From NCBI GenBank assembly GCA_977862235.1, contig OZ374564.1, positions 1,116,001 through 1,180,000 of the forward strand: a DNA stretch of 64,000 nt, read 5' to 3'. The notes below the pieces were generated by a model. That model saw only the letters and a list, made by a program, of their open reading frames with translations. It did not search any database and was not told the origin of the DNA. The DNA is from Dudresnaya verticillata. Lineage: Eukaryota. Numbering within the stretch: the stretch's first letter is position 1; each line of letters begins with the position of its first letter. Of this stretch, positions 1 through 25,903 are shown one piece after another. The translations under genes and the position numbers were made by a program.

Positions 1-1010
1 CTCCAATTTGTCCTAACCGATAACGGACCGCAGTTTACTGCTGAGTTCTTTGACGCAGTGTGTTCCTTACTCGGAATCAGGCATTTACTTACCGCTGCCT
101 ACCATCCTACCACCTACCGCGACTACCAGTACCTGCAACCGTTGACGTATACATACAACATGCGGGTACACCGTATTACGGAAACACCGCCATTTGATTT
201 GGTGCTGACACGCCACCCATCGGACATTGTTGTACGAGGGGCTCTTGTCGAGCATCAAGAAACCGTTAGGGAAGGGCGTATGACCCCGGTGCTACAGAAG
301 TGGAGCACCATGCGCCGTTTACGGTATGCGCTCCAGACAGCGCGCACTAAGCAAACAGTGGCTCAGCAAAAAGCCAAGGCACTGTTTTACCGTAAGGTGC
401 GCTTTAGGCCTATAATCCGTAACGGAGATCAAGTCTATGTCGACAGGCCGCCCCATAACCTGCGGCCGACCGAACGCCGTGAGCGGGACCGATTGGAAGG
501 CAAACCGGATGATGTGGGCGAGGTGGCTCAAGAAGTGAAGAGACTCCTTCCGAGAGCCACGGGGCCTTATGAAGTGGAATCCGCAACGGAACATGTCGTT
601 ACAATCCGCAAGGAAGGGTTATTGATCCCAGTAAGTATAGATCGCATCACGAAGGTTCCGATCGGAGTTGCAGTTCAGCCGGCACCCTTGACAGTGCCGC
701 CTGTCACGCCATCAACCGTTTACGGAGAAGTAGTGCCACATCCAGAAGGCACTACAGTAGCGCCTACACCGTCAGCGGGCATTACACCCTCCATAGCGGA
801 ACCCCGACAAGCCGATACGGAATATGTGATCGACAAGATTGTCGGTCACCGCGACGAACCTACTGGGATGACATACAAAGTGCGCTGGTATGGTTACCCT
901 CCGGATCAGGACAGTTTTTGAGCCCGCGGAGGAGTTGCCGCGGAATTTCATCTACCGGTATTGGAAGCAAAAGAAAAAGGCATCCGCTAATGGTAAGCCA
1001 TGGAGACGTG
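1..1010 (+). pseudogene. Gypsy integrase C-terminal part with GPY/F motif and chromodomain, frameshifted
   Basis: LTDNGPQF (bases 11-34) and TAAYHP; LPRATGPYEV; EYVIDKIVGHR...YKVRWYGYPPDQDSF. An extra T near 915-919 breaks the frame, which continues as EPAEELPRNFIYRYW. Confidence 0.9.
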
Positions 1011-1511
1011 CTAACCCAACACGTCACTCACCGTAACGGACAATTGGAATGCTAGTGTGTGGGAACGTACAATGTTTATCGCAAGCTAAGGTCGAGGCAT
1101 ATTTCAAAACCGTTAAGGAGATCGTCGAACTGTAACTCTAAGAGTCACGGCGACGCCGCTTCGGAGCAGGGGCAACGGTATCTTCCTCGTTGCCCCCTGA
1201 CCCGTTCGAAAGCCGGGTTCCCCACTCTGATCCGATTAGAATGCACGCTGCGTATTGTCTTCCAAGACGCGAATCACACTATCCATACGCCGACGCTGAC
1301 GACGGACTACTGCGCGGAGATGAATCACCTTCTCCATTAGTCCCTCCGCTAAGGTTGGCGCCTCCTGAACGGATCCTGGCAATGGGAAGCGCTGTGTACG
1401 GCAAATGCCCCGTAGCACCTGTAGCCTGCTTTCCGTAGCGGCTAAGTGAGCCGGAACTGTAACGGTGGGATCCTCATCTTCCTGAAACTCTACCTTCGGG
1501 GATATAAACGG

Positions 1512-2213
1512 CTAATCCCTAACCCCGGCTTCGATTGAGCGCTCCGTTGAGGAAACCACCAATACGGATGGTCCCGACTCGGGTGAAGGTACTTCCTTCC
1601 GCGGAGGTGGGTTTGTGTCCTTCTCTGGAGAGGCTATATCGCTTTTCCGTAACAGTTCAGGACTTGACGCGGGAGCCGAAGGCTTGTCACCAATTACCCC
1701 GGCACTTGGGCGTTTTGGAGCCACTTCCGGTACGGTGATAGGTGCCTCACTCACCACTGGTGTGGGAGTGGGTGCCAACAGCGGAGCACTTGTCGGGGGC
1801 AGTTCGGCGGCTGCAGGCATTTGCGTCGCAGGAGACAGTGCTGCCGGCACAGTAACCGGCGGTGCTTCCGAAACGGTCTGCCCCTTCGAAGCCCCTTTCT
1901 TGGATGGTGCCGCAGGCTTAGGCACCGCAACAATAGGCTCAACCACGTCTATGGGTTTTGGGGTCTTAACCAACACGGGAGTAGTAGTCTCACGATCCAC
2001 ATCGCGCGACGTAAATGTAGCGACCACCGGAAGGACTGGAGCGGCTGTTTTCTCGATATTCGCTGCCATCGGTGCGACGGGCATGACCTCCTCCTGTTCT
2101 TCCAAGAAGGGGCCAGCTTCTTGCTGCCTCACCGTAACGGAATCGCTCGGGTCGATTGCACGCGAACGCCCCGCTGTCTCCTGACAACTCCCCCAATATT
2201 CGGCCCCATCCAA
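1512..2213 (-). CDS. Pro/Ala/Ser/Thr-rich low-complexity tail, probably the frameshifted continuation of the E1 antisense ORF
   Basis: Same strand and directly downstream of 2253-3629. E3 has the same layout (15401-16726). Confidence 0.55.
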   Translation of the reverse strand: MDGAEYWGSCQETAGRSRAIDPSDSVTVRQQEAGPFLEEQEEVMPVAPMAANIEKTAAPVLPVVATFTSRDVDRETTTPVLVKTPKPIDVVEPIVAVPKPAAPSKKGASKGQTVSEAPPVTVPAALSPATQMPAAAELPPTSAPLLAPTPTPVVSEAPITVPEVAPKRPSAGVIGDKPSAPASSPELLRKSDIASPEKDTNPPPRKEVPSPESGPSVLVVSSTERSIEAGVRD

Positions 2214-2252
2214 ACCGTCACGGTACGCATCCCTTGATGCTTGGCGAGGCGC

Positions 2253-3629
2253 TTAACCCCGATGGGGCTGCACCTCTAAGGCGAACCATTCCGGACGCGG
2301 ATATTCTCGATGAAGGAAATATGGCTCACCCACTCCGGGCCTAAGCGGGGGCACCGATAGGACACGGTCCTCATCCCAACTATACCCCAAGAAGCCCGGA
2401 GTGCGTTGCCAATCCTGCTGTCCGTGTACGGATAAAAGACACTCAACCCGATGAAGAGGATACGCCGACCCCGTCACCAAATCGGTTACGCCGACTTGGC
2501 GAATTAGGGCGATCACCGTCACGGGAAGTTGAAAAATACGGCCACAGTCTCCTCCGCGTAGGTCAGCTTCGTCACGCTGGAAGCAGTGCCAGTCGGATAA
2601 CTTGGTATTGCACCGCACTCCGTAGTAGGCAACCTGGAGCCACGAAAATAGCACCAGCATTGCCCACTCCGATCTGAAGATGCTCCAAAGCACGTCGAGT
2701 TGATCTTGGATCGGGGGACGCTCTCCGTTCGGATGTTCGTGATTCCACTCCCGCTCCGGGAGCAGGTTCGCAGAGAAGTACGCCACCACAGAAGGCGTGG
2801 GCACGGATAACCAACGAGTTACCTCGTATCTATCCCACCACGACGGAGCTGTGAGGTAGAGCTCACGTCGCATCTGATACGGAAGGTGGAAGAACTCCTT
2901 GGTATTCCACAGTTGCAAGATGGGTGCCCCCATATGCATTCCGTCTCGATAACGCGTCCGCAATCGGTGTTCCGTCGCCGCGTCGTCTTTCCACCCGTCG
3001 GCATAGCGGAACCAATACACCGACTGGTCATGCGGTGGGTCGAAGCAGATAAACTGCACCCCGATCGGTGCACCCCGTAGACGGAACGCCTTGGCCAACA
3101 AACGGCTCACCTTCGCGGTATACACAACTTCTCCGTGGCCGTGGCAACGGTACCACAACAAATCCGAAACGGTAGTGGTGCGTTCCTGGCAGTAGCTGTG
3201 CACCCATCGGCTTTGCCACACAAACGCCCGCCGGTTCGGCACGAAACCAATTCGCTGGTTTGCCTTGAAGGGCTGCTCCGAAACGGCTTGGTATCGTCGC
3301 GCTTCCAAAACGGTTGGGTAACCCTCGATGAAGTATGACACTGTCATCGGTGGTGTCACCTTCGCCCGTTCCGAATCGGATCTCGTCGGGCGCCCCGCAC
3401 GGTGCTCAAAATGGTGCCCCGGCCAGTATCCGCTCGGGACAGGACCCTCACCGGTACGGGTACGCGCCATCGGCATCCAAGAGCCTGTCGTAGGCGTCAT
3501 GCTCCACACTGGCACGCGCGACCGTTTCGGAGTGCTGCCTGACGCATATGGGCTCGCGCCCATGTTCCGCATCGGAGTTGAGACTAGGATCGATGGCGTC
3601 CGTAACGGAATCGATGGTAGGTCCGCCAA
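2253..3629 (-). CDS. Antisense ORF of E1, unknown Trp/Pro-rich domain (458 aa); probable true start is the ATG at 3978 via a frameshift near 3670
   Basis: Long open frame opposite to pol, between integrase and PPT. Motifs align with ORFs 14613-15488 and 48696-49595. Confidence 0.7.
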   Translation of the reverse strand: MADLPSIPLRTPSILVSTPMRNMGASPYASGSTPKRSRVPVWSMTPTTGSWMPMARTRTGEGPVPSGYWPGHHFEHRAGRPTRSDSERAKVTPPMTVSYFIEGYPTVLEARRYQAVSEQPFKANQRIGFVPNRRAFVWQSRWVHSYCQERTTTVSDLLWYRCHGHGEVVYTAKVSRLLAKAFRLRGAPIGVQFICFDPPHDQSVYWFRYADGWKDDAATEHRLRTRYRDGMHMGAPILQLWNTKEFFHLPYQMRRELYLTAPSWWDRYEVTRWLSVPTPSVVAYFSANLLPEREWNHEHPNGERPPIQDQLDVLWSIFRSEWAMLVLFSWLQVAYYGVRCNTKLSDWHCFQRDEADLRGGDCGRIFQLPVTVIALIRQVGVTDLVTGSAYPLHRVECLLSVHGQQDWQRTPGFLGYSWDEDRVLSVPPLRPGVGEPYFLHREYPRPEWFALEVQPHRG

Positions 3630-4298
3630 GTTGAGCTCCTCAGCACCACGTCGGACCTCCTCGTCATCATCCTTGGTCGAATCTTCTCCGTGACGGTGGG
3701 TCGCCGCATTCCCTAACTGGGTGTTCCTTGCGGCTGGGCCAGCAGCAAACGGATTCGGATCGTAGACAGACCAGCCGCGGCCCGCCGAGAGTATCTGTGA
3801 CGGTTACGCTGCGGTAACGCCCGTGCGACCACTCGTCGTGCGTGGTACCACAACCGCCGAGGACGAGGCCTGCGCTTGAGTCGAAGCATCTGTAACCGTA
3901 GGCGCACCTGGCGCTCTCGTCGTCTAGCTCGCGCGGGAACGCCGTTTCGGTTGAAGGCTTGCTCTTCTCCCCTGCCATCTTGGAAGCGGGCGCACGAAGG
4001 AGAAGGAAAAGTTGAGGAAGATAGCCGTATCGGTTGTGTGTGGGTGTGGAAGCAAAGGTAATCCGTGACGGTGGGCGCCCGAAGACGTGGCGCCATCTTA
4101 AGGAGGGGGGTCTGTGGTGAAGTGAGCCGTAGCGCGCATGCCGCACGCCGACGGCGAGCCAACCGTAACGGCTGATGTGGCAATACGTCACGCTGACGAT
4201 ATGGCAACGTGTAGCCGTGTCGGATGTGTGTGCGTATGTATTGCTGTACGCTGGTACGCATTGCTGTACAGCAGTGTAGCGCACCAACCATACCGGAG

Positions 4299-4306
4299 TA
4301 TTTATA
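4299..4306 (-). promoter_or_regulatory. Candidate TATA box for the E1 antisense gene
   Basis: TATAAATA on the minus strand, in a locally AT-rich patch about 320 bp upstream of the ATG at 3978. Confidence 0.35.
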
Positions 4307-5134
4307 GTATTTATTCCTTATTTTTAGTGAGTCTGTGTACAGTGTGTAGAGTAGCGCGCCAGCCAATGAGAATGCTGCGCATCTCCGTGTCGGAGATTGG
4401 GACCAGCAGGGCCGATTCCGCCATAGGACCAGACCAGTAGGGTCTGGCCCCCACGGACCGGACCGCTCGGTACCACCCTGACTTGTATATCAGCGCGACA
4501 CCGCAGCGGCTCCTAAGGTAAACGGTAAAGCAACCTTAGCCCAATCCTTTACGGTTTTCCCCGCGCCAAGCCCGTTGCGGTCTACCACCACCACCGTTAC
4601 GGATTCCATTCCGGCACTTGTACCACCCCCTTGTCTGTTGCTTCCCAATATCCGTCTCGGTTAGCCGCTCGCTGTTCTCCCGTTTCGGTGCGAACTGCTC
4701 TACCACCCCGTGGAGGTAGTGTTGCTCTCGTCCGTTAAGGAAAGTCAGGCCAGCTGTCCGTCTCGGCGTTCGTGGGTTTTCACTACACCACACGTTCGGT
4801 GCGCCGACGCCGGGAAGCAGACACACGTTGAACTACATCGCGGTGCACTTCCTCGAGCGCCTCCTGAAGCCTAGAAACTTCAAGAGGCTGTTTAGCACGC
4901 ACCTCACCAAGCGTTGACAGTTCCGTATGCTTCTCTAGCGGCAAAGCTGTAATACAGTGAAGGGCTTACAGAAGTGGGCCCTCTGCCCTCGTGTATGCGC
5001 TGAAATATCGTTACCTATAGGGCGCCAACAGGGACAAGACGGGTAGTCTCTGAATGGTCCAAGTGTCACCCTGTAGGTCAGTAGCTTAGTATCTGTCGAT
5101 TTAGTTTAGAAATTATAGCTTAGGATAGGGGGAG

Positions 5135-5466
5135 TGTATATAGCCCAGTATGAGGTGTGCTGCCTGACAGTCGGAGTACCATATAGGGGTATCACCCGTA
5201 GCGGTCCCTGTACAGTAAAGGTAAGCACCTTCCGGCCCCAACTACGTCTCCAAGCCATCGGCACCGCAGCACACCTGTCACCCGTGCCCGGTTAACCGCC
5301 CGCCCAGTGAACTACCTTCAGTATCGTGCTTCCAATCAGGTTACGCGCCCTAGTCTACCCTCTGGGTTCCTCCCACTCTACCACCGCTACCAGTTACCCG
5401 CTCTGTGGCTTTCTCATTGAGTGCACTCTTTGAGTTCACAAGAGACCTAAAAGGTACTTCCTTACA
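5135..5466 (+). repeat. 3' LTR of E1, preceded by PPT AGGATAGGGGGAG (5122-5134)
   Basis: TG...CA ends, adjacent purine tract, sharp junction with the E2 integrase at 5467. Confidence 0.75.
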
Positions 5467-8400
5467 AAAGCGCGTAGAAGCGGTCTTTTCGGAGCGATGC
5501 CTGTCATAACTTGCAATGGACAGCGGAAGACCAAGGGCTGATCCTTCTTGACCGGGCCGAGGCGTTTAAGAGGTGCCTGATTCAGGACGCTCTGTACACA
5601 TTCAGTTACTGCTGGCCAGTCTTTAGGGGCTAGCTTCCATTCCGAGAGGAGTGCAGTTACGGCCCGTTTCACCTCTCTACATACGCGCTCCACTGTCCCA
5701 TTAGACCAGGGAGAATAGGGCGTCGTAAAGTGGCGCTGCACATGGATGTGGTATAACGAAGTCCACGGTAATGCGGGGAAGTCTCGCACTGTAAGGAATG
5801 GCCTCGGAGCCTAACGAATGGCCTCGTAGCCTAACGGAGAAACGAAAAGGGGTGGTAGCGTGGTAGAGCGGAGCAACCAACACGAAGGACCACGGTGTCA
5901 ACGTATTCGTGTGCGGAAGGGAGAACTCGAGCGATCGATCACCGGGGATGACTCCGGGTGCGCGGGGCTATCGAAAGCGAGGCTCGACCGTATCCTCGGT
6001 CACGAAGACGAAGACACCGAACTCCAAGAAACAGGCGTTTACCGAAGACTCCGAGGTCCGGGCGCTAGTTGCTTACCGGAAATCCTCGGAGGTTGTGCCA
6101 GACGACTGGCTAATTAATACTACGTGAGCACGAATACACGTCAACGCGGGAGACGGTTCGTACTCGAATGATTTGTAACGGCCTCGGTGCCAACGAACGG
6201 TCGTCTCACGTATGGTGGCGGTTACGAAGTGCGCCAGCGATGCATACGGAGGTGCACACGCTTCGTGGGCCTCGGTGCCGTTACGCGCGGGAAACAACGG
6301 GAAAGTCACGAAGGAGTCAGCGATTTCGTATCGGGTGCGCACTGTAATGCGAATGCCATCGTGGCGCGCGCACAGTATGCGCACTGTAATACGTTTGCCA
6401 TCGTGGCGTGCGCATTCACGGAGTCACTTCGAAATTCGTATTTCTCGATCATTTTCACGTAGACCACGGAGTCGTTTCGCGCACAGCGTCTATACCACAA
6501 TGGAACTCGTCCGTTAAGTGTTTGACGAGCCAGTTGAGGAAGTGCGATCCCTGATCGCTCACTAACCAATCCATGGATCCAAAGGTAGCAATCCACATGG
6601 ATAAGGTTTTGGCAGCAGCCGAAGCATCTGCAGCGGATGCGGGGAATAGCCAAACATAGGAAGACAAGTCGTCACGCATGAGGAGCAGGTACTTGAGCTG
6701 CTAAGTGCTCTCGTCCATGTACAAAACTTCCACATGCAACACCTCGTTCGGCTTTGAGCCATGTAGAGCGTGGGAAAGAGGACGTGGAACGAACTTTCCG
6801 GATCTGTTGATGAGGCAGTGCAAGCACAATCTCACGAAGGTGGAGACTTCCAGTTTCAAGTTTTCCCACCAGAACTGCTCCCGAAGGATGCTCTCAGTGG
6901 CGTCTTGGCCCCGATGGCCCACCATTCCGGCGTATGACCCCACTAGAATACGCAACTTAAGGTCCTGCTCCACTTCAGGGATCCAGATTCTTCTTTCCAC
7001 GCGCCATAGCCCATCTTCATCGGATAGCTTGGCTGTATTCGGGGGAAGGTGATGTTTTAGGGCGTTCCGAATGGTCTCCCACTCGGGCCAGATGACCTCA
7101 TTCAACCTGGAATGAGCTGTGGAAGATGCTTAACGAGACCAAAAAGCGCCTTTAGAGCCTTGGGCTCGGTGCGATACCCTCGTAACCATCGGGTGAGGAC
7201 ATCCGCGAACACATTCTTGGCTCCGTCAATATGCTCGATCACATAACTGAACCTAGAGAGGTACAGTGCCCAACACTGTACCTTCGACACGACATGGCGC
7301 CGCAGCCCGGGGTCTAGTGCGAGCGGAGCAAACACGAAGAGTACGTTGCGATGGTCCGTGAAAACGTGGGCTTCCTGCGCACCAAGGAAGAGGTAGTCCA
7401 GCCTTGAGAATGCTTGGAAGATGGCGAAGCCTTCCTTCTCGAAGGTAATCCAGCGTTTTTCGGCTTTCTTAAACTCCGCACCTAACAATGCCAACGGTTC
7501 GTGCTGCTGTTCCTCGAAGGGCACCTTGAGCTGTCCAGGGTCTGCCTGTGTTACGACCGAAGACCAGAACCGGTCGGACGCGTCGGTGAAGACGCAAAGT
7601 GTCATTTCAGGCTTTGGGTGTGCCATTTTAACGGCTTGTTACAGCGTGTCTTGTATGTCACGGAACGCGTCAGCATGAATAGCGCCAAAAGACAGGGTGC
7701 ATAAGCGGATTCCCCAGATGGATCGAGTTTTGCAGCGGCCTGGTTTGGCGTATGCCTTTTCCAACAAGGCTTTCAATGGTGCCATCCGCTGAGGAAGGAG
7801 CGGGATGGCCTGTAACATCCTTTGGCAGCATTACAGGAACTGGGCGAGTTCATCCGCGGTTTCTGGAAGGGCCATAGACCGTATAGCGGAAAATCGAGCT
7901 GGATCCATCTCGTAACCATCGGCTGAGATGATGCGGCGGCACCATCTAACGCGACGAGTGAAGCATGTGCACTTTCGGGCGGAAAGGTACAAGTTTTGTT
8001 CTTCACAGATGGCAAAGCAGCGCGCAAGCAAGCGTAGCAAAGCCATCTCATCCGTGGCGTGGAGTGTGACGTCATCCAGCCACGCCTTCAGATTGTCTCG
8101 AAGGTCCTGGAAGAGCGGTTCAATCGAGCTCGGGAAATACGCCGTGGCATCGGTCAGGCCAGGTAACACCCGAGTGGACGAAATTACACCGCGAGGCGTG
8201 ACAATGCCAGAGGCATCGTAGGAGTCTGGGTGAAGTGGGAGCTGCCAGTACGCCGAAAAGAAGTCCAAAACGGCAAAAGACTTGCTGTCAACGACGTCAC
8301 GCAGTTCAGATTCGAGGTGGGGCATCGGCCAGGATTCTTTGACCGTGGCGGCATTGACTGGTCGCAAATCAATGGCCAGACGATACTTTGGGCGAGATCC

Positions 8401-10355
8401 TGGCTTGGGCACCAAGAGTGGTGCCGCTTGCCACGTAAGGGTTTGGCACCGCAAACCCAAGCTCAATCAGCTTGTTGACATACTTGTCGAGAAACGTACG
8501 GTGTTGTGGCGAATACCGTCGAGCTCTCACCCTAACGGCTCGCTTTCCTTCAAAGAGCCGCACCCACATGGGTTTAGCCTTGGCTGATGGGGTTTTTCCC
8601 AGCCTTAGTCGAAAATCGACTTGTGTTTGGCAATCAGTTGCTGCAACGTCCGGGCACCCTCCTCGGATAGCCCTTCAGCGCGAGCAGATTCAACTGTAGC
8701 AGAGAGAGCTGAATCCAGCGCCTCTTGCGAGTCCTCGCATAAGTCAATTTATACATCACTCTCGTCGAACGGGTCCACATCGTCACTGCCTCCTTGGCTG
8801 TGATGGGTCGAACCGTGTAGGTTCCTTACGCCGAGTAGTGAAGCAATTAGGCTCGAAGGGCGCTTACCGTTCTTACGAACGTCTGCGTCTAGGATATCCG
8901 GGACAAATACGCCTCCGTTATGGCGATCAAAAGCGGCTTGTAGTAGCACGCGATTGTCAATGCCGAGGGAGCGCAGGACAGGTCGACCAATAATGACGTG
9001 AGACATCGCTTGGTCACTCACAAGCCACTTCATGCCGCGAAGGAGCAATTGTGACCCATGGCGGATTCGCAGGCGCACATCAGCGTCTATGGTGCGGCGG
9101 CACACCAGCGGGGAAGCATTCTGGTCCGCCATCTCGAACCTATCCGGTGTAGTAAGATCTGTGGGCTTCAAATTCGGAGTCGCATGCAGGAGTTCCTTCA
9201 GCACGATCGGCGGGATAACGTTCTCATCGGCACCGGGGTCGGCTAGTACGGTAGTCTCTACAGCCCCATTAAGGAAAGTAGCGCTGAAGAGGGTACTCTC
9301 AATGTCTTTTCCCTCACTGATCAGGTTCATAACTCTCTTTCCACCCTGCGCTTTTTGTTGCGCACATACTCCTCCATAAGTTGCTTCTTCAGTGCTTCTG
9401 ACGTTATGGGGCAATCCTTGACCAGGTGTTTCTGCTTGCGGTCAGGGTTCAGACAGTCTGACAGGCTGTCGTGAGACGATGATGCGGCCTTAGTCGCCGG
9501 AGGAGGGTTTTTGCGCTTCTTTGCACCCTTCTTACCGGCTTTTTCCTTCTTCTTCCGAATGGTTTTGCGATCGGATTCGCGCCGAGCCTCAGAAGAGTCT
9601 TAGTCGCTGCCGGAGTCTGCACGAGACTGTGATAACTCACTTCGTTTAACCTCTTTTGCCATCTTGGCCAGCTCCCTCATGAAACGGCCGTAGTCCTTCT
9701 TGTCAAACCCTTCGTTTTTACGCCACGCGATGAGCTCCTTCATCTTCTGACGTAGACGAAGAGGTTGCACACGTTATATAATGTGCTTAACAGCTACATG
9801 TGGGCGCTCTTTGGGAAGGGCGACAATACCAGATGGCTCCAGAGCAGTACGACAAGACAAACTGAGTGACCAAACTCGACTCTCTGGCTTCTGAATGGAC
9901 ATATCCATTCGTACGTCCTTGATGGCAGCTTGCACGCGCGAGAAGTCATGGTCATCGTCGGGATCGGCCTTAGCCCGCTCTTCTACGCACTGGCGGATCT
10001 GTTCCTCGGTTATCGAGTCCAAATCCTCAGCCACAATCCACTGCTCTAACAAGAACTCCTCTAAGAGGGCGTCGTCCAACGAGTTGCGATACGAAGTTAG
10101 CGGAACGTTGACTCCCGCTTCTGAGTTCTTCTCTGCCACTCTCTTTTCGTAGAGCTGGCGTTTCTTCTTGAACGCGACGAAGGCGGACGTACTGACAGCC
10201 TTAAGAATGGGTGCTTCCCAAGTTTCGACAATTGTCTGCTTGACTGTGTCCTCTCCAGCAGCCCGAGTTTTTGGAGCCATTGCGCCTTTTCCTGGCAGAA
10301 CTTTTCGACCAAAAGTAATTACTGTGGCGATCTGCGGGTCGTGATGCTGGTCCAC
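5467..10355 (-). mobile_element. Decayed Ty3/Gypsy element E2 (gag-PR-RT-RH-INT)
   Basis: gag 9449-10355; protease LADPGADENVI (8749-9414); RT LDFFSAYWQ and AWLDD (7831-8466); RNase H TDASD, EKE and FTDHRN (7102-7626); integrase HRG...CLHC, VSDQGSHF and PWSNGTVER. Many frameshifts. Confidence 0.92.
5747..6499. mobile_element. Solo LTR (753 bp) inserted in the E2 integrase
   Basis: Ends TGTGGTATA...TATACCACA with 5-bp TSD ATGGA (5742-5746 and 6500-6504). Removing it rejoins LTDEFH|VQRHFTTPYS. Near-identical copy at 63199-64000. Confidence 0.93.
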
Positions 10356-11061
10356 GCAAACACGGGTTCGAGGCGAAAGCGAGGGGCGGGGCTACACACT
10401 CTGCGACGGTGATCGTCCGTGAGGGTGTTGCCTCTTTTTCTCTAACCTACTGAAAAGCGGATGGCCGGCCGGCCGCCGGCCCAGGCCGGCGACATTGGCC
10501 CGGCTCAAGTTTTGTCGCGAGGGGTGTGACTCCCGTGACACTCTAGGGCAGATAGTTTTGCCGTAATATCTGCGAAGGTGGTTCAGCGGGCGCCCAAGTG
10601 CGGGCGCATCGATTTCGCGGCAAGCAGGAATCCTCGAAAAAGTAAAGACTAAAGTACAAGCTGCGTCCGAAAACGCATGCTTATTGTGAGTGTGTACCCT
10701 AGGGTAGAGGTGCACCGAACACAACTCGCTGCCTGGCGCCCCGTAGGGACGCCTGTAACGGGCGTGACCCCGGTGAATGCACCGTGCCGAGTACGATTGT
10801 GCTGCGGGCTCAGCGTTACAAAGGTGGCGTTACCTGGGGTGATTGTGGCAGGCCCCTATTTCCGGGGCAGGGCACGATCGAGACTATTCTTTTTGTCCAA
10901 TTTCTCCACCAACAAGTAGCAAACGAAGGTGTATCATAATACGTGACTTGCGCATGCCAGCTGTGCCTTGGTGAAACGGCGCAGGAACGGTATGAAAAAT
11001 AGGGTAAAGTTTTGGACTTACTGGTTGACTGTTAGGGCAGCTCGAGGTTCTTGTTTCGGCG

Positions 11062-11595
11062 TGTGGTATAACAAGCGCTGGGGCGCTGTAAGGAGACACG
11101 TGTACACGCGACACCTGTAAGGCGTGGGACACAGGAGTGAGATGGCTGCTTGCCATTGGACAATTAATTACGTGAGCACTATGCGCGCTGAGTGGTGGAT
11201 ACGCACCATGATTTTACGCCTACTTTGTGTGCGGCGTCTTACAGTGACGCCGTACGTACGGAAGCGGTATGACCGCTCATTCCTATTTTTAATCGCTAGT
11301 GTAACTGTTAGTGTACAGTATTAGCTCACTGTTAGCATTATACAGTAACCCTAACTGAGCGGGTAGTATCTTTCCGGCTCCCGCCGTATTTATTAGGCCC
11401 CTGAGTAGCAGGGGCCCGCACTAAACGGGCAGCGGTGTGTGCGTTGGGCTTTTCTCCCTTCGTTGGACTCTCACGGTATCACCGCCACAACCGCTACAAC
11501 CCCCGTTAGGCGTTTACAAGCCGTGCTACCTACGACGACTGCTCTAAGCCGTACGGTTCGCCTTCCCTTTTCCCCCTCTTTTTGCAGGGCTTGCA
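11062..11595 (+). repeat. Truncated LTR related to 11596-12372 and 58194-58884
   Basis: Starts TGTGGTATA and shares the TATTTATT..GCCCCTGAGTAGCAGGGG block. Interrupted by the next LTR. Confidence 0.65.
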
Positions 11596-12390: not shown

Positions 12391-13074
12391 ACAAGTTCTC
12401 TGGGTTGACCCTTTTACTGCATTACCCCCGACGGGTCCAATCAAGACACTCAAATCAGGACGGTTAGTCCGTTGAAGTTTCAAGAAATCTTCCTTTCGAA
12501 GGGTAAAACCCTAGTCGTCTAACTGTCGACGGTTTCTACGCTTTATTTTAAGCTCCTGAGTTACGTCAAATCTTGTGAGCAAGCAAACTACGTTTACGGT
12601 TTTAACCGTCCATAGAAGTACCTTACAACGTCGGACTGACGCCCGGGTTGAGCTACTTCAACAGGTTTTCCGTGCATCCTGAGAAAACACGTGTAACAAT
12701 ACGGTTCCGAACCGTCGAGAAGCCTGGGAAGAAGTCCCCGTTGCCTCGTCGGCAGAGCCGAAAATTCCAAGAAGATGCCAACATCTAATGGCGACACTAC
12801 TAGGCCCGGGTTAACGAGCCGTGGAGCTAGCTGGACTGGAAGTCTTGCATCCGTAAGGACGATTGGGGCTCGCACCCGTGCGGTTTCAACCGCCCTTATA
12901 AGAAATCCGGAAACGGATGAGCCGGGACGTCCGCCAAGAACGACGGGCGCCCCGGCTGGAGAAGAAGTCCCGGGACCAGGTGCGTATCAGGTCCCGGAAG
13001 GAGAAACTACGGTTCGAACTGTCGGAGACTTCCCCGCTGACATCGGGGAGAATTTGGGTTCGAACCCTGAAACG

Positions 13075-13997
13075 TGTGGTGCAAACGTCCTGGACGAAAC
13101 ACCGCCGAGCAGATCGGGGCTCGGTGGGTAACGACGCCCGTGGCGGTGAATGACCTCGCCTAGGGCGGCTTGTGGTAGAGCGGTTGACACGCCTTGGGCG
13201 GACTGTAAACGCCCGAGACGGAAAGGAAGAACAAAAGAGAACGAAAGGGGAACAAGTCAACGACGGTGGTTGATCGTGGAAGCACGGGAGGTAGACGCTT
13301 CGGCCGTAGACAGCGGTAGCGGGGGGTACGCGCGTGCGGAACGGGGAAGTCTGGACCAAGCCCGGCTTTCCGGGAGTTTACCTCAACGTCTGGGACGGAT
13401 CAACGAAGTATAGAACTACTTAGCGGCGGCGACGCGTGCGTACGCGCCGCGCGGGAACTCGGGACACGTGTTGTCCCGAGGCGCATCTGACAGATCCGTC
13501 GGTCATGTAGCCGCGCTCCTGACAGATCACGCGTAGCTTCCCCGCTTGAGTCCTTACACATACACGTGGGTGTACTTCCTTACAGCCACACGCGCCTCAT
13601 GGTGCGTGCGATCTCGATCCGCACTAATCCCGATCCAATCCCGATTCGGGCCAGCCATGCGGATGCGCCAAGCTTACAGGCGCGTGCCTTACACCTCTTA
13701 ATCTCGATGTCTGATCCCGATGTGGCATTCCGATTGGATCCGGATCCGGGCCACACTTACAGCGAACGTTCCCGCCACTGCGCCATGCGCGCACGCGTGG
13801 CGCCGTACAGTGTTCCGGGTTCGGGCGTGCGGTCTGCAGGCCAAACGAGCCGTTCTGGCCCGGGTGGTCAGAGGCATGCGTCGGTGACGTGTTTGCGCCG
13901 CGGGCGGGTTGTGCGCGCGGTGGGCGGTCGCCCGTCGGTAGACGCGGAATATCAACCCGCTTGAAAGCGAAAAAGGGGAATCCCCTCTGGCACTACA
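13075..13997 (-). repeat. 3' LTR of E3
   Basis: TGTGGTGC...GCACTACA inverted termini, adjacent PPT, homologous to the LTR starting at 25328. Confidence 0.85.
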
Positions 13998-14612
13998 CGA
14001 CCCCCTCCGAAAACACAAACACGTCAACTTGCTTCAGCCCGCCTGCCTTCCTGCGTCCGCGCCGGTCGTCTGGGTCATCCGCGCCTTCTCGTTTGCACTT
14101 GCCCGCCCTTGGCGTTGTTTGAGCCCCGTCGAAGACGCACGTTCAGCTTCCCCCGCCTTTGGCGTAGGAACGTTTCCCGTCCAAGACGTACAGTTGCCTA
14201 ACTTCGCCAGTGGCGTGCGTGAAACCCTGTCTGTGACGTCGTATCTGTGCACGCGTTCGTGCACCTACCGCCTAGGGGTGGCTTTGAGTTCCGCCTTCGG
14301 CGTTGTTTGGTCCAACGTCGTTGACGTGTGTTTGTTTGTTTCCGCCTTTGGCGTAATTCACTCAACTTCGGAGTCAAGACCGTCGTTGACGTATCGTGCG
14401 AACTCCGCCAGCGGCGTGTGATTGTTGAGCGTCTCAGACGTAATTGCACAATTCAACGGCCTGCAAGTGGCTGCGCCTTCGGCGGCGCCGGTGTATCCGT
14501 CACCATTCGACTTTGTCTGGAGGATTCCCGCAACGATGCGCGCTTATTCTCGCGGACCCCCTGATTCAACCAGCAGGCCCTGCGGCACGAGGATCTCATC
14601 ATCCATTACGCT

Positions 14613-15488
14613 GTGAGCGGATGTTTGCCAGGGGAGTTACCCCTGACCGTCGTGTGGACGAACGAGTGGCGCCATCGGTGCGCCATTACGAGAGGCTGGC
14701 TGCGTATTACAGCCGGTCAGATGCGTGCAGATGCGCATGCGCGTTTCGTCGTGGACGTATATCGGCGGTTTACCCGCTATCCGGGGTCGGTATTGACGCC
14801 AGCCGTCTTTGAGTTTGACGCAGGGCAGTACCGCACCAGTGGTGCGGTTGGGAATGGAGACCGTTTTGGGACGTTGTCACTGAGCCATGTGGCTGTTTCG
14901 ACTGAGCCGTGGGTGCTTCAGGAGGCTAACCTCCTTGGTGTACGCTTGAAAGCGGATTTCCGATACCTCCATAGGACGGGCACCTTCTATTGGGAGCGCT
15001 GCGTCCGTTGGGAGTGCGAAACGCGCCGCCGCAAAGGTGTTTTCGTTCCGTATCAAGATACGGAAGTTGATCGCATTGAGCGGGAAAAGTTGCCGCACTG
15101 CTTCATCCGTGTCCCGCCGCTGTGGTGGGACTTTGAAGTCTGCGAGGGCTTTGCGGTTGATTTGCCTCCGTGTGTCATGTATATTGGCTCCGAGGTGCGG
15201 ACGGATCCGTACTCCCGATGTTGGATCGCATTCTTCACCGAGTGGGTCATCAATTTGACCTACGCCTGGATGTGGGAGGTGAATGACACCTTCCGTCTCT
15301 TTTACGTGCGACCACGCGTGATCAGCCTCCTTGGCGCGCTCGACTTGGCCGAAGTGCTGGTGGTGCCAAGAATTGCCAAGCGTTCTGGGATCTACGCCAT
15401 GTGGCGGATAACGTCAACTGGGACGATCCGGCTGTTGTGCCGCCGAGAAACAGACGCCGTAAGGCAAACCGTCCGCGTTACGCGATGA
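14613..15488 (+). CDS. Antisense ORF of E3, conserved domain part; frameshifts near 15360 into ORF 15401-16726
   Basis: VPPLWWDFEV...VDLPPCVMY...FTEWVINLTYAW...RLFYV aligns with the E1 antisense ORF. Confidence 0.7.
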   Translation: MSGCLPGELPLTVVWTNEWRHRCAITRGWLRITAGQMRADAHARFVVDVYRRFTRYPGSVLTPAVFEFDAGQYRTSGAVGNGDRFGTLSLSHVAVSTEPWVLQEANLLGVRLKADFRYLHRTGTFYWERCVRWECETRRRKGVFVPYQDTEVDRIEREKLPHCFIRVPPLWWDFEVCEGFAVDLPPCVMYIGSEVRTDPYSRCWIAFFTEWVINLTYAWMWEVNDTFRLFYVRPRVISLLGALDLAEVLVVPRIAKRSGIYAMWRITSTGTIRLLCRRETDAVRQTVRVTR

Positions 15489-16726
15489 GTAGAAACCATT
15501 CCGCCTGTGGCGATTGGGTGAGGTACAACCCGGGGACCAAACGTCTTACGACGGAGAACATCGCTGAGAGCCATCGTCGTACGGACCGCTTCACGCCAGC
15601 GAACCACCCACGCGGGTTGCGCAAGAATTACGACTTCGCGGGTGATTTCCCGCCGCACTTGAGCGCCATGATGGCGGAGGAGGATGCGTTCCACGCTAAC
15701 AGCGGACCGGTTAACCCATCTGGGACGGAGGTAATTATGCCTATGGCGGTTGAGTCTACTGCGGGGGCAATAGCCCCTGCGACAACTTCGCCAGCGGCGG
15801 TAGGACCGGCGGTTGTTGTGCCTGTTGGCTTGCCGTCGGTTGCGCCGTTGGATCTCTCGGCGCCCGTCAATGACGGTGATGGTGATGCCATCATGGCTGC
15901 GCCAGTGGCGAATTCTGCGTCTGCAGTTACGACTCAAGGCGGAGTGTCTAACGTCGCTGACGGTGCGCATCGCACTCCTGCAGGGGCCGAATGGACTGAG
16001 GAGCAGCGCCGCACGGTGCTCGCATTCTTACGGGCCACCGGTGTCGTCACTGACGGAGCGAGCGGAACATCGACGACGCCACTTGGGCACTCGCTCCTGG
16101 CTGCTCTGCAGCCCAGCGTTGCCGTGGTGCCGGCGTCGACTATCGTTGCAACTGTGCCGTCTAATGACGAAGTGGCGAAAAAGCCGGTGTCGCCTAAGGT
16201 GGGTTGTTCGGGTTCGTCCGCCATTGCGTCTACCGACGTTGTTAAAAAACATCCGCCAAAGGCGAGTGCGATGAAAGCGCCTACGGCGGGTCCGCAGGCT
16301 CCAGTAGCCTCTTCGTCCGTGACGGATGTTGACCGTTCAATGCCTTTGGCGGTTAATGGGGTCCCGTCACCGGAGGTGCCGGGGCCGTCGACTTCGCCCA
16401 AGGCGGTTGAGGATGCTCCACCTCCAAAGGCGAGCGAGCTTCCTTGTGTAGCGCCTAAGGCGGATAATGATTCTAACTCTGCGCCTGTGGCGGTTGACAA
16501 AGAGTCGTCGCCTAAGGCTTGGGGTGAGCCAAGCTCGTCGCCAGCGGCGGATGTCGCGACTTCGACAGCGGTGGTTGTGGCGGGCCCCTTGCGGTCTGTC
16601 CCTGCACCTACTGCGAGCGCACCGTTGGTGACGGAAGACGACCTCTACGAAGAGGCGTTAAGAGAATCCGCCAATGGCATCGGGGATGATGCCCCATCTG
16701 AGCCGTCTGCGACGAAAAAGCCGTAG
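15401..16726 (+). CDS. Antisense ORF of E3, C-terminal part with Pro/Ala/Ser-rich tail (441 aa)
   Basis: Long open frame containing the DWVRYNP motif followed by a low-complexity tail, as in E1. Confidence 0.6.
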   Translation: MADNVNWDDPAVVPPRNRRRKANRPRYAMSRNHSACGDWVRYNPGTKRLTTENIAESHRRTDRFTPANHPRGLRKNYDFAGDFPPHLSAMMAEEDAFHANSGPVNPSGTEVIMPMAVESTAGAIAPATTSPAAVGPAVVVPVGLPSVAPLDLSAPVNDGDGDAIMAAPVANSASAVTTQGGVSNVADGAHRTPAGAEWTEEQRRTVLAFLRATGVVTDGASGTSTTPLGHSLLAALQPSVAVVPASTIVATVPSNDEVAKKPVSPKVGCSGSSAIASTDVVKKHPPKASAMKAPTAGPQAPVASSSVTDVDRSMPLAVNGVPSPEVPGPSTSPKAVEDAPPPKASELPCVAPKADNDSNSAPVAVDKESSPKAWGEPSSSPAADVATSTAVVVAGPLRSVPAPTASAPLVTEDDLYEEALRESANGIGDDAPSEPSATKKP

Positions 16727-17938
16727 CGTTGTCGGATCGTTAAGAACGGTTAACAAACGCGAGAGCTCGTGTGGTGTCGCTTTGCCTGCCCCGAAGCGGG
16801 GTGGCCAGCGAGGGATGCATACGTCATAGACGGTTAGTGCGGCGTCTCGTGACGTAGGTCGTAGTGAGAAGTTATACGGGCACGGGGGTTACCCCCGCTT
16901 GTGAAGCCCGAATAGACTTGACCGTTGTTAAACGTAGTTACTTATAGTCCCACTTGGTGTAGAGCGCTCCGATAGCGAGAAGTGTGTAGCCGACGGGTCT
17001 CGTTTGTTTCGTTGTAGTTGTTTCGGTTCGCTGTAGTAGCGCTTGCATAAATGCTCGGGGCGGTGTCGCCTTGGCGACGTACTCCTTCTTGTTGCCGCTA
17101 CAGTAGCGTAGGCCCATTTTGGGGGAGCCCATGCTCTTCAGCCGACTTAGTCGTTTTGTTCACATCGTCATTCCGCTTGTTAAGCGAGTATGTAGTTAGG
17201 GAGCCGTTTTTCGGTTGGCTTTTCGTCTTTGAAGTAGGAAATGTTGGGTTGGCGTCGGCGGCCCTTAGCTTAGCGTTGCCCCGTGCGTTGGACGCGTCTC
17301 CTGCGACTCCTGGGCACGGTTGCCACGCCCAGTGGCGGAGTCATTTTTGCGACTAGCGCGTCGTGCACGAACAGTAGCCTAACTCCGTCTTCGACGACTG
17401 GTTCTTCTCTCGTGTTTGCCGGCGACCCCTTTTGCGATTTGAAACACGTCGTTGATGTCTACGGGCGTTGTCCTTGGAGCGCTTGCATGTGCCGCCAGCA
17501 AGGGTAGCGAGTTTCAGACTTGACCGTGGGCGTGGGAGACGGTCTGTCGCTTCCTTGCTTGCGTTTGCCTCGTGGGCGCTCGTAGTGCCGGGGCACACAC
17601 TTTTCAGATCCTCGTTTGTTGGGCGCCGCCTGGCTGGCCGTGCCTTCGCGTTATTGTTTTCACATTAAAAGGTTCCATTTCGTGTGTTGCTTGGTTTCGT
17701 GTGGTGCGTGCGCCCTCCACGCTTTCTGACTACTGTCAGCCGTCCTGTCCTTACGGACCCCCTCCGAAGAGGGTTGCCTATTCGCGTGTCGCCAACCCAA
17801 CCGTCCTTGACGCGGTGGATTACAGCACCCCGTCTTCCGTAACGAGTGCACCTCCGCGTCAACCCGTATGAGGATGTGGCGTGTACTTTCGCCGAATTAG
17901 ACCGCCCCGTTCGCTTTCAGCGTCCACCCTGACTAGGG

Positions 17939-20900
17939 TTACCCGCACTGCGCGTCGTCGATGTTTGGCGGCAGACGCGTGTGCTTCTGGCGGTGATATC
18001 GCACGACGTGTGATCGCGGTAGACTGGAGACTGGTTCCCAGGTATTAGCTGAGGCGGGGTATCCAAACCACTTGACGCGGTAGAGTATCTCACCGTCTTC
18101 CGCGTGTGCGTGCGACTCAACCCGTTCGATAACGTACTCCTTCTCGCTTGCAGCGGTCGACGTGGACTCCTGCCGTTTTAACGCCTTGGGCGGTTCACTT
18201 TGCTGCGTGATGGGCGTCTGCACCGGTTCTGCGAACCGTACTCGACGAGTCGATCGCCTAAGGCGCTGGGCCGGTGCCCGAGCGCTTCCGTAGCGGATTG
18301 TGGTTCGTCGCTTTTGCGTACTGGTTCCTCGCTGCCAGCGTTGTCCTTTGGATTAGCGCGGCCTTCCTCATCGACATTCGATGCGCTCGGAGCGGGACCT
18401 ACATTGGTAGCCGGCGATGCCGAGGTTGCGTGTCCCATTCGCGTACGGATGCCTGGACCCTCCTCATCGTTGGAGACGGATTGCGGGACTCCTTCATCAG
18501 GGTTGGCGGCGACGGGCGAGATCTCTACCAACCCACGACTTCGCGGCGTTGCATTAATTCGCTCCTGCGAGTCTTCCGCGCTTCGCGGTGTCCCTGTGCC
18601 TCCGACCAGGTCCGCCTGTGGCGTGTCTGGGGTTCCTGCTCCTTCGTCTGTTGACGTGGGGGCAGTGGGCCCCGGTACTTCAGGTGGTCCCGGTGGTTGC
18701 ACGGTTGCGGGGGCGACGTGCCCTAGTGGGGTTGGCGCCCATACCACGTGGTCCCGGGATAAACGCTAGCGTTCTCCACGTCCCTTGTCGACGGTGACCG
18801 TCTCTTCATTGACGTGAGTTACCCGATATGGTCCATCCGCCACAGGCGCGAGCTTGTGCTTCCTCTCGGCGCGATCGGTGCTCCCGCCACGGGCGAAGTA
18901 TTACTTTCGCACGAATGCGAAGTCACCCACAGCGATGTTCTCCTTCGATTTCCTCAGGCGAGTATCGAAGTTCCGTTTGTAACGCGCCTGCATTTTCTCG
19001 GGCGACATTTTAGCGGTTCCCATCAATTCTGCAACCCAGGTGCACCACTTGGTGTAGTACTGGTCAGCGGTGGGCACGCTTTCAAGCGACGGTTCCGCTT
19101 CCAGCGACAATGGCAGCGGGGGCTTGGATAGTACCAGTTCGAACGGAGCGAGGTGTGTAGACGAATGCAGTTGCGTATTGTACGCGAACTTCAAAACCTC
19201 GGTAAAAAAATCCCAGGCGTGTGGGTGGTCTGCTACGTAGTGACACAGGGAGGCGAGGATGGTTCGATTGAATCGTTCCACCTGGCCGTTACACTGTGGA
19301 TGATATTAGTGGTGAAGAGATTCTCCTCTCCTTGGATGCGGCAGACTTCCTGGAACAACTTGGCTACAAATTGCTGCCCATTGTCGGACAGCAGCTTCTT
19401 GGGTGGGCCATACACAAACACCCAGTGTCGAACAAACGCCTTAGCGATTTCCAATGCCGTAATCTTACGTAAGGGAACCGTCCGGACCAGCTTCGAGAAG
19501 CGGTCCGCGATGCCGAGTAGGAACTTATATGCCGAGTAGGAACTTATTCCCCCGCTTAGTGCGATGCGTTACCCGAGTATATCGATGGACACAAACTCGA
19601 GAGGCTCGGTGGCTGGGAACAGTTTCATCTCCTTCACGTTCTTTCGCATTAGTACCCGGTTCTTCGCGCAGGTAACGCAGTTTCGGACGGTCGCGTAACA
19701 ATCCACCGACATAGACGGCCAATAATACTCGCGTCGAAGCGTATGGTACAGCTTCCGCCCTCCGGGATGTCCTGCTAATTTAGCGTGATGCTGGAGGTGG
19801 ATCAATCGAACGCGTAACGCGGATGGTACAACGACTTGAGGTCGGGCCTCGACGGTCCGAACCAATAGTCCCTGTTCATCCGTTGCAAAGAGTAGGGCGT
19901 CTCCGTCTTCTAGACGTTCCCAGATCTCGGAACAGTACTGGTCATTGCCCTGGGCATGCAACAACTGTTCATGCGTCAATTGACGGAGGAGAACTTCATC
20001 CGCCGGTGGCGCGTTGGTAACCAACATCTCGTCAAACTCCTCGAACTCTCGTTCGGAGAAATCGACTTCGCCCTTGGCGCTTGACGTATCGCTTTCTCCG
20101 TGAGCGTAGCCGTCTTCTGACGAGTGATCCTCGTCTTTGACGCAACTTCCGTGGTAACACGGGATTTCATCGTCGATCGGTTCGACCGTTTCGCCGTTCG
20201 TCTGTATACGCGAGAGGGCATCTGCCTGAGTATTCAGGTATCCCTTTTTGTACTTCACGACAAAGTCGAATTCAGACAGACAAAGGCGCCATCTCATTAA
20301 CCGTCCCGAGAGGTCGCTGATTTCCATCAGGCTACGGCTACCTCAACGACGAATGGTCCGCATGAACTACGAGGCACTCCATCTGAAGGTACGGTCTCAA
20401 TTTTGTGATCGACCAAACCACTGCGAGGCATTCCTTTTCGGATACCGAGTAGTTGCGCTCCGGAGCGGTTAACGAGCGTGACCAGGAGCCAAGCGACTTC
20501 CGTTCACCGTCAGGCTGCGGTTGGAAGAGTGCACAGCCAACTCGGTATTCACTCGCGTCACTATCGACGTAGTGCGGTAGTCCCTGCTGCGGCGACACCA
20601 GGATGGGTGGGTGAGTCACCGCTTCGACAAGCGTGCTGAATTCCTGAGCTTGCTCCTCGGTGAACGGTTGTAACCGGAAGTCTTGCTCTTTCCTCAAAAC
20701 TTTGTTGAGGGGAGCGGCGACATGCGCGTATCGCGATAAAAGCCGTCTATTGACGTTGCACAATCCGAGAAAGCTCCGTAATTCCTTCTGGTCCCGCGGG
20801 TGCTTGGCTTCGCGTATCGCGGTGGTGACCGTACGGTCTACTTGCAATCGTCTCGGACGTATCACTTGGCCTAGATAGTTGACGGTCGGGGTGAAGAAGT

Positions 20901-22450
20901 CGCACTTGGTCAACTTCAATGTTACCCCGGCCCGATGCAAGGTCGAAAGGATCTCGTCAACGTGACGGAAGTGACTGTCCATGTCGTTAGAGAAGATGAT
21001 CACATCGTCAAGGTAGACGAGCATGAGCGCCACTTGTAACCAGCCAGTAAGATATCAAGGGTCCGTTGAAACGTAGCCGGCGCGTTAATAAGCCCGAAGG
21101 GCATACGCTTGTAGCGGAACAACCCGGCATGGCACGTGAACGCCGTCTTGTCGCGATCCCGCGGGTTGATGAGCACCTACCAGTAACCACTATTGCAGTG
21201 TAGGGTAGTGAAGACGTTTGCTTCCCCTAGACTTTCAATATATTCGTCGATTCGCGGAGAGGGTACGTGTCTACCGTCACCGCGTTCAAGCGACGGTAGT
21301 CGACGCAGAAGCGGAGTGTACCTTCCTTCTTGGGAGCAAAGACGACCGGCGACGCACATGGCGACTGTGCGGGTTCGATAACGCCCTGAAGCAGCATGCG
21401 ATCCACCTCCGCTTGGGCGAGTTGCCTTTGCTTTGGGCCAGCGCGATAGGGCAGGGATGAAATCGACCTGGAGCCGGGGAGCAAGTCAATATAGTGCTCC
21501 GTGGTTGCGATTTCTCCTAATGAACCGTCCCACATCGACGAGTACCTGCGAAGCATCTCCTTCAGCCATCCTTGATGTTCGGCTGAGAGATGACTCAGGT
21601 CCAACTCGTCCACTGACGGAGGTTTTTGCTACAGTTGCTTCGATCGACTTAGCGAATGTATCCGGCTGTGCCGTTACTCCATCATTATTTTGAAAACGGA
21701 AATCTTGATTCGCCTCTTCCTCCGTTGCCTGCTCCTCGGTGATACCTAGGACATCGGCCAGACTTATGTGACTGGGGAACACTGCTGTGGGATGTGGCAA
21801 CGCAGTAGCGATGACTTGTCCTTTGACGAGCGCCTGCGGACGCGGGGAAACGTTTGCGACGAGAATCCGGAACGCTCTCAGCGGCCCTACCGGAGCGACC
21901 CCGTTAGTAATGGCCAAAGCTTGCCGATCATATACCGTTCCAAACAGCGGGATGGTAATGACCCCTGCTCGTTCGGTCGTTACCGAGATCCAATTTTGCG
22001 CCTGTGTCGGGATGATCGTTCGTTTCGCAACGCGTATCTTGGGCGCCGTTTGCCCTCCGGCCGTGCCGTACTCTTGTTCCGTTGGCAACGGGGGTACGAC
22101 GGGGGCCGGCGCGGCGGGAGGCGCGTTATAGGGACGCGGGTCCCGTCGTCCAACTCAATCTCGCGACTCCGCGGATAAATGGCTTCGACAAAGCGGTCGC
22201 AAAAGTCGCAACCGAGTATAACCGGCGCAGCGAGTCGTTCGCAAACGATTAACTCCAACTTGACAGCCCTTCCTCCGATACATACGACTAATTACATGGT
22301 GCCTTCGGTTTGAAACGCCTTGTTATTGGCGTCTAATATTACAGGAAGACTCTTGGATACGATCCGTGGTCGCACTTCTATTGGAATGTCGTCAATACGA
22401 ATGAAATTCGGACCAGCCACGTGTCGATCACAGTACTTTTATGTTCCAAT
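17939..22450 (-). pseudogene. E3 pol (protease-RT-RNase H-integrase-chromodomain), multiple frameshifts
   Basis: VIDT/AGPNF near 22430; SPVVFAPKKEGTLRFCVDYRRLN; VYLDDV; ERNYSVSEKECLA; ERFNRTI; EYVIERVESH...YRVKWFGY...TWEP. Confidence 0.92.
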
Positions 22451-25400: not shown

Positions 25401-25903
25401 GAGTAGCCACACCTTAGGCCGTAGTTGTAGAGCGATGGACGACGCCTTGGGCGGACTATTAACGACGTAGGCGGAAAGGAAAAACAAAAGAAGACAAAAT
25501 AAAACACGTCAACAACGGGGGCAGATCGTGGAAGCACGGAGAGGTAGCCGCATGAGCCTTGAGGCCAGCGGTTAGGTACGCGTGGCCCGGAAGGGCTAGT
25601 CTGTACCAAAGCCGGCTTGCTCTGGTTTACTCCAACGTTCTAGACGGGGTACCTATTTACCATTAGTAGCACGGATGCCGAGGGCGTCGCGCAAGAACTC
25701 AGGACACTTGTTGCGCTGTAGTGCGTCTAACAGATCTGCCGCGCGGTGCAGCGACGCATCCGACAGGCTTGTGCCACACGTCCTATACAGTTGCTTACAC
25801 ATACAAGTGGCCACGCGCCCCTTACAGGTGCGGGCGCGTGACAACGTGGGTGATCTCGATCCTAATCCGGATCCGCATCAGTATCACGAGTGCGCCGTTA
25901 TTA

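Follow-up and report, generated by a model that had tools for sequence, protein, structure and literature searches.

Why should one broken retrotransposon carry the same short palindrome dozens of times? The question is raised by the first 5.2 kb of a 64,000-nucleotide stretch of Dudresnaya verticillata DNA (contig OZ374564.1, positions 1,116,001 to 1,180,000; hereafter the window), in which an element termed E1 holds a field of CCG-N3-CGG sites. The feature is real, strong, lineage-specific and larger than first described, and it is repeated in a neighbouring element and in loci outside the window. The palindromes are likely lineage-specific sites of a protein that E1 itself encodes on its antisense strand, in a scheme resembling those of the plant transposon proteins VANC and TnpA and belonging to neither; this reading, drawn from sequence and analogy, has in our judgement roughly even chances of being right. 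Judged by its predicted products, E1 represents the 3′ half, in broken form, of a Ty3/gypsy retrotransposon with a chromodomain, and its named relatives are red-algal. Its 5′ half lies beyond the window edge, so that the order of reverse transcriptase, RNase H and integrase (RT-RH-IN) and the second long terminal repeat (LTR) are outside view. The parts of E1, including its antisense open reading frame (ORF) with a nuclear localization signal (NLS)-like end, are as follows.

1–1036, plus strand: 3′ end of pol, coding for the C-terminal part of an integrase and then a chromodomain (Pfam rve followed by Chromo).
417–5204, strand-neutral: field of CCG-N3-CGG, 35 sites, 10 of them CCGT-N-ACGG.
1141–3803, minus strand: antisense ORF between pol and LTR, with a conserved domain, a long Pro/Ala/Ser/Thr-rich tail and an NLS-like basic end near 1150.
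2319–3446, minus strand: conserved domain of ~350 residues, largely helical, in which many of the conserved positions are Arg, Trp, His, Asp or Glu.
4297–4433, minus strand: predicted antisense promoter, an ATTGG box followed by an AT-rich TATA-like stretch, with a putative function.
5122–5136, plus strand: polypurine tract followed by TG, placing the predicted 3′ LTR start at 5135.

An earlier note on this DNA had reported ten copies of CCGT-N-ACGG in E1, and all ten are present, starting at 417, 1031, 2132, 2215, 2516, 3600, 3688, 4063, 4163 and 4594. The remaining ~59 kb of the window contain two further copies (16317 and 33573), and 100 dinucleotide shuffles of the whole window yield 1.00 ± 1.05 copies with a maximum of 4. 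Within positions 1–5200 the ten copies compare with 0.18–1.40 in shuffles that preserve 2- to 5-mers, none of 1000 shuffles per k reaching ten. The near variants that the note listed at 315 and 716 were recovered as CCGTTTACGG with a spacer of 4, along with six CCGAAACGG/CCGTTTCGG forms and two CCGGTACGG forms. The motif as first described is thus real but too narrow; the unit is CCG-N3-CGG, of which CCGT-N-ACGG is the commonest form, and a different palindrome in the neighbouring element had been overlooked. The wider unit occurs 34 times in 1–5200 against 3.1–5.5 in the same shuffles (largest 16; 0/1000 per k), and the 24 sites that are not of CCGT-N-ACGG form are enriched by themselves (24 vs 2.9–4.1). 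A spacer of 3 between CCG and CGG arms is found 34 times, a spacer of 4 ten times, and every other spacer from 0 to 12 one to six times each. The other 58.8 kb hold 25 CCG-N3-CGG, inside their own span of 11–29 for other spacers. Region and motif were chosen from the same data, but the log10 P of −19.9 far exceeds what the count of palindromes scanned could account for.

Chance, base composition, codon bias or the relic of a tandem repeat could in principle generate such a field, and E1 has 56% GC and a CpG observed/expected ratio (O/E) of 1.09. The chance that any of these is the explanation is negligible, being refuted already by the shuffles (0/1000 for k-mers, 0/2000 for codons). The sites are spread across integrase, antisense ORF and non-coding DNA, from which the earlier note had argued that one codon pattern cannot explain them; the argument holds, as E1 coding DNA contains 19 sites, whereas shuffling of synonymous codons leaves 3.83 (largest 10; 0/2000) and shuffling of codon order 2.02. 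The sites occupy all three reading frames, and 19 of 34 lie within ORFs. No tandem array covers them, and their flanks are unrelated to one another. The density is 4–6 per kb over 1–3446 (integrase, tail and domain) and rises to 12–14 per kb over 3447–4800, the densest part of E1, which comprises the 5′ end of the antisense ORF and the predicted promoter. The final site starts at 5196 and 5501–7000 is free of sites; the field stops with the element. The stop codon that ends the frame downstream of the chromodomain lies within the site at 1031–1039 (CCGTAACGG).

The pol remnant places E1 among its relatives. The Pfam matches to rve and Chromo are both below cut-off in this broken copy, which shows a 22-codon gap relative to its homologues and a frame break at ~919. 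The integrase has 22 homologues at 33–47% identity, most with an integrase followed by a chromodomain and two of them named Chondrus crispus, which points to a florideophyte red alga as the likely host.

A second chromodomain element, E3, lies downstream of E1 and carries a signature of its own.

13000–25900, pol on the minus strand: E3, degenerate chromodomain gypsy element with RT-RH-IN order and two LTR-like ends that are 77% alike.
14565–16726, plus strand: E3 antisense ORF, frameshifted, with the homologous domain and a low-complexity tail (hidden Markov model (HMM) independent E-value (iE) 1e-8; hhalign 96%, E 3.8e-9).
14104–14484, strand-neutral: E3 site cluster, seven CGCC-N3-GGCG and five CGTC-N3-GACG, just upstream of the antisense domain.

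The E3 signature is CG-xy-N3-y′x′-CG, with 92 perfect sites against 8.5 (0/200 shuffles). CGCC accounts for 35 sites, CGTC for 23, CGCT for 9, CGCG for 6 and CGGC for about 5; the two commonest types, CGCC-N3-GGCG (35 vs 1.06) and CGTC-N3-GACG (23 vs 1.09), also exceed codon shuffles. The 12 sites of the cluster mostly alternate at intervals of 23–27 nt, and their flanks are merely 29–36% alike. The densest stretch (22.9 per kb) is found just upstream of the antisense domain, a place that matches the peak in E1. Three of five LTR sites are present in both LTRs, one of them with all three spacer bases altered. Although E1 and E3 share one genome, each is without the main signature of the other (3 vs 2.5; 11 vs 8.0). 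An LTR-like relative of E3 at 52000–53600 (72% to 13234–13522) has the E3 signature at 7 vs 1.2.

These counts bear on the proposal that host transcription or chromatin factors, of MYB/MSA type or dimers reading CGG triplets, were recruited by each lineage and bind the sites. The earlier note had offered a MYB/MSA factor as an alternative, the AACGG core of the palindrome resembling such sites, and AACGG is frequent in E1 (6.5 per kb). Borrowing of host factors is, as a matter of general knowledge, common among elements, and the sites do cluster at the predicted promoter. However, only 14 of 34 AACGG/CCGTT words fall inside sites, and masking of the sites lowers the density to 3.85 per kb, close to the values for E2, a gypsy element used as control (3.08), and for E3 (3.10). 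No match to the MSA consensus exists in E1, and CCGTNAC half-sites lacking a second arm are not enriched (5 vs 3.4–10.3). A host factor is weakened by this near-background frequency of AACGG outside palindromes. Moreover, two neighbours in one genome differ in signature and relatives elsewhere share them, and 19 of 34 E1 sites lie inside ORFs. We consider a host factor improbable.

The relatives elsewhere come from a metagenome scan, from which the best 80 of 345 loci were taken, and their motif type follows the integrase tree. This tree has 22 rows (12 of 85 loci, E1, the longest piece of E3, and 8 of 22 proteins), was midpoint-rooted and carries no clade test; E1 groups with the loci L001 and L002 and Chondrus-type proteins (98/96), and E3 with the locus L046 (97/95). 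CG-N3-CG is enriched in E1 (63 vs 39.9), L001 (29 vs 14.2) and L002 (74 vs 32.0), with 0/200 shuffles reaching each count, and the flank in L001 and L002 is A or T in place of C, with 21 matched A..T and 30 A/T mixed. L046, which has the antisense domain, shows the E3 signature (15 vs 4.3; 0/200 shuffles). Over 356 nt at 74% identity, L001 and L002 have 5 of 6–7 CG-N3-CG in common, some in conserved codons. L003 is borderline (10 vs 5.3; 15 vs 8.0), and L081 and L082 are negative. The latter two are gypsy integrases in contigs of a bacterial metagenome-assembled genome, probably eukaryotic contamination.

The palindrome scan of the 80 loci also turned up excesses of other kinds: CTGC-N5-GCAG in L059 (15 vs 0.8), GCCG-N1-CGGC in L005 (15 vs 1.7), GGC-N4-GCC in L034 (53 vs 19) and GCGGC-N15-GCCGC in L079 (5 vs 0.05), with further cases in L029 and L025. 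Those of L059, L005, L034 and L079 are possibly tandem repeats or codon effects. In viral contigs the integrase scan found no relative, the motif-pair scan gave scattered, chance-like matches, and the domain alignment offered no stretch conserved enough for scanning. DNA motifs inferred from homologous protein sequences were too noisy to use (controls at z 3.5–4.4, false matches higher).

The candidate binder is the product of the antisense ORF. A binder that changes with the lineage of the element and not with the host would most simply be the element's own antisense protein. The ORF of E1 is broken by stops at 2253–2255 and 1512–1514, with frame changes further down. A word-based protein search with it gave no match; homologues surfaced in a full HMMER scan, in which residues 120–495 have 79 at E ≤ 0.001 (best 1.7e-27, 31% identity). 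A check of 20 homologues by name showed one cluster labelled Gracilariopsis chorda (four proteins, among them PXF39757.1) and a single protein derived from a transcript assembly of Gracilaria changii. AlphaFold2 models the E1 domain with a predicted local distance difference test (pLDDT) of 85.3 and a predicted template modelling score (pTM) of 0.88. Across 72 aligned members no Pfam family was assigned, single members matching only coiled-coil families, and Transposase_28 (PF04195) was matched by none of them at E 0.05. The best E in a search of solved structures was 0.34. Fold comparison of the whole domain gave E > 0.6 with Foldseek against PDB and viral structures and, in VIA, a best Z of 3.2 over 47 residues; the N-terminal 210 residues (pLDDT 87.4) gave no Z ≥ 2, and a new fold is unproven by either comparison. 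The ESM Atlas search with the domain returned no usable match. E1 ends in an NLS-like basic stretch, as do 13 of 33 long homologues, of which four are near-identical; the corresponding figure for control windows is 43 of 732. A module related to the predicted antisense promoter is found at 29074–29150 (blastn 75% over 77 nt). It belongs to a stretch, 28926–29150, in which relatives of an E1 LTR segment (5202–5334) and of the predicted promoter (4358–4433, inverted) stand back to back.

In the metagenome set 29 of 80 loci match the antisense domain, all 29 in the orientation opposite to the integrase, and E1, E3 and L046 each combine the domain with a spacer-3 signature. A third homologue in the window lies behind a palindrome-rich stretch, and two elements of the window have neither signature.

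44500–49595, plus strand: third, remote domain homologue (ORF 48510–49595; hhalign 83%, E 8.5e-6; HMM iE 4e-5).
6502–11300 and 58500–61300: E2, from a different gypsy lineage and truncated within its integrase, together with a related gag, used as control.
30500–34800: degenerate Copia-like element, judged by eye from translations.

The 44.5–48.5 kb stretch ahead of the third homologue holds 36 perfect loopless palindromes of at least 10 bp against 4.6 in 30 shuffles (largest 8). E2 is without either signature (CG-N3-CG 25 vs 24.6), as is the Copia stretch. The palindrome-rich DNA lies in a region of ~17 kb and 47% GC (34800–52000), in which a palindrome excess extends to 35–44.5 kb as well (28 vs 9.8), with palindromes of up to 24 bp. 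No Pfam match and no transposase was found in this region; its size recalls giant 16–20 kb red-algal DNA transposons, and En/Spm families of that size are reported from Chondrus (PMC6431247).

Taken together, the sites in E1 and their counterparts most likely reflect a system by which red-algal gypsy retrotransposons recognize themselves through an encoded protein and its cognate sites, as far as sequence comparison can indicate. The antisense ORF would be transcribed from the internal minus-strand promoter, and its product would enter the nucleus through the basic C-terminus and bind, probably as a dimer, two CpG-containing half-sites around a 3-nt spacer. With many weak sites the protein would coat copies of its own lineage and spare the rest of the genome, and it may feed back on its own promoter. 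By analogy with plants, where VANC and TnpA have this effect, the protein would most likely protect the element from host silencing.

In E1, L001 and L002 the read-out looks like duplex DNA. Inner bases of E1 sites combine freely (T..A 10, mixed 12, A..T 2), strand bias is absent (p 0.25; p 0.91), pairing beyond the arms shows no excess, the 3-bp stem is marginal (−1.4 kcal/mol) and the L001/L002 form is unfolded as RNA; E1 therefore fits a dimer on duplex DNA.

Several observations weigh against the self-recognition reading. In E3 the arms must be complementary, mixed CGCC/CGTC sites numbering only 3; loops of 4 are enriched too (37 vs 7.2), and the next outer pair is avoided (8/92 vs 25.2). 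Such behaviour is unlike that of an ordinary homodimer with a degenerate half-site, and the read-out in E3 and L046 would have to target a mini-hairpin with paired bases or else some symmetric distortion. Neither E1 nor E3 shows a depletion of CpG (O/E 1.09 and 1.26) that would indicate silencing by methylation. Of the 29 domain-bearing loci, 28 belong to a clade of 58–66% GC, nearly all to one cluster, and its tested representatives L012, L041 and L065 show neither signature nor a clear non-palindromic word. L001 and L002 bear a signature but are too short to reveal the ORF. A tree of the antisense proteins has poor resolution and gives no sign of co-evolution with motif type, and the independent cases are few: two motif-bearing lineages and one unclear element.

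The complement-only rule of E3 keeps alive the proposal that the sites are mini-hairpins in element RNA or single-stranded complementary DNA (cDNA), which Gag, reverse transcriptase or integrase would recognize as scattered signals for packaging or replication, with the antisense ORF just travelling along. The Watson-Crick arms needed in E3 and L046, their varied stems, the loop preference 3 > 4 > 5 and the unpaired next position fit this proposal, as do RNA folding energies of −4.8 (CGCC) and −2.7 kcal/mol (CGTC), a slight T bias on one strand of E3 loops (p 0.06) and the extension of sites over gag-pol. It would also account for a clade with the domain but without palindromes. Nonetheless, G-T wobbles in E3 are not preferred over A-C mismatches (12 vs 10), the stem of E1 is marginal and the ACG form unfolded as RNA, the L001/L002 flanks mix freely, E1 is without strand bias, and the densest clusters stand at the antisense promoter region. 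RNA or cDNA hairpins are accordingly rated an unlikely explanation, though one to be reckoned with.

A mutational process, either hairpin-templated correction or template switching in reverse transcription, might instead make short perfect palindromes that are under no selection. It would yield complement-only arms as in E3, less constrained DNA is the denser in sites, and the palindromes at 44.5–48.5 kb have no fixed sequence. But correction should extend stems, yet the next pair is avoided (0/35 vs 9.6). Enrichment in E1 is restricted to the CCG stem (34; next stem 4), the sequence varies by lineage, and sites persist despite diverged spacers and flanks. The avoidance of longer stems and the persistence of arms where spacers diverge both weaken a mutational origin, which we hold to be quite unlikely.

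A bolder form of the self-recognition reading is put forward tentatively, as rather doubtful. Red-algal gypsy elements and at least one other element type would carry a mobile nucleic-acid-binding module of undescribed fold, and each lineage would have tagged its entire genome as self, in coding and non-coding DNA alike, with CpG palindromes numbering from dozens to a hundred; the tag of E3 and L046 would be read by its structure, a 4-bp CG-based mini-hairpin of free inner sequence, and not by its bases. If true, this system of self-recognition (anti-silencing) would be the first of its kind in a retrotransposon.

Two further features of the window complete the survey.

5778–6502, 57424–57831 and 61784–64000: copies of a repeat whose 90-nt tandem unit includes GCCA-TCG-TGGC; they adjoin an RT ORF that by eye looks non-LTR-like.
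26470–27632: remnant of a DDE_1 transposase (Pfam).

VANDAL elements, eudicot MuDR transposons, encode VANC, an accessory protein with a conserved domain and a variable tail, and a short family-specific motif that differs between related families is piled up in the cognate elements, as is seen here. The motifs that VANC recognizes lack palindromic symmetry and sit in tandem repeats in the non-coding parts of DNA transposons (PMC5735166), whereas the present sites are dispersed palindromes in an LTR retroelement, over half of them in ORFs, and E3 has a single diverged cluster in place of tandem-repeat motifs. Binding and anti-silencing are known for VANC and only predicted from sequence here. 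VANC is reported to be MAIN-related (PMC13547354); no Pfam family connects VANC or MAIN to the E1 domain. TnpA binds clustered family-specific motifs at the termini of Spm (bioRxiv 10.64898/2026.08.24.746577); these co-diversify with the lineage, as here, and TnpA activity depends on motif density, but TnpA is transposase-derived and acts at DNA-transposon termini, whereas the sites of E1 and E3 extend over the retroelement in its full length. Many elements have antisense ORFs between pol and the 3′ LTR, with their function stated to be unknown; those of Retand, Grande and RIRE2 (TRP28, PF04195) share the position and orientation of the E1 ORF and are nuclear, proposed DNA-binding regulators (PMC11963269, PMC7264820). 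Retand is an angiosperm non-chromovirus, PF04195 is unmatched here, and the accessible text names tandem arrays, not cognate palindromes. E1 is a member of neither VANDAL/VANC nor TRP28-Retand, but may work like VANDAL/VANC. In red algae, the accessory genes PAG1-3 of Plavaka elements move between families of transposable elements (TEs); PAG1 has no known domain, and for PAG3 the proposed targets are arrays of inverted repeats that lie next to it in its own transposon (bioRxiv 10.1101/2025.02.11.637652). PAG3 differs in combining a ParB-like part with a 2-oxoglutarate (2OG) oxygenase and in serving giant DNA transposons with tandem arrays. According to the same source, no transposon other than VANDAL is known to bind its own sequence and modify it, and the chromatin of red seaweeds is unexplored. 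A literature search whose scope excluded most subscription papers and the Repbase reports found no description of the domain or the signatures.

With these findings, a retrotransposon antisense protein is paired with a predicted target that differs between lineages, which turns the question of its function into a swap between two lineages, the protein of each being set against the palindromes of both. The findings also point to a new, predicted family of proteins that bind short nucleic-acid sites, and they give a way into the study of TE silencing in red seaweeds.

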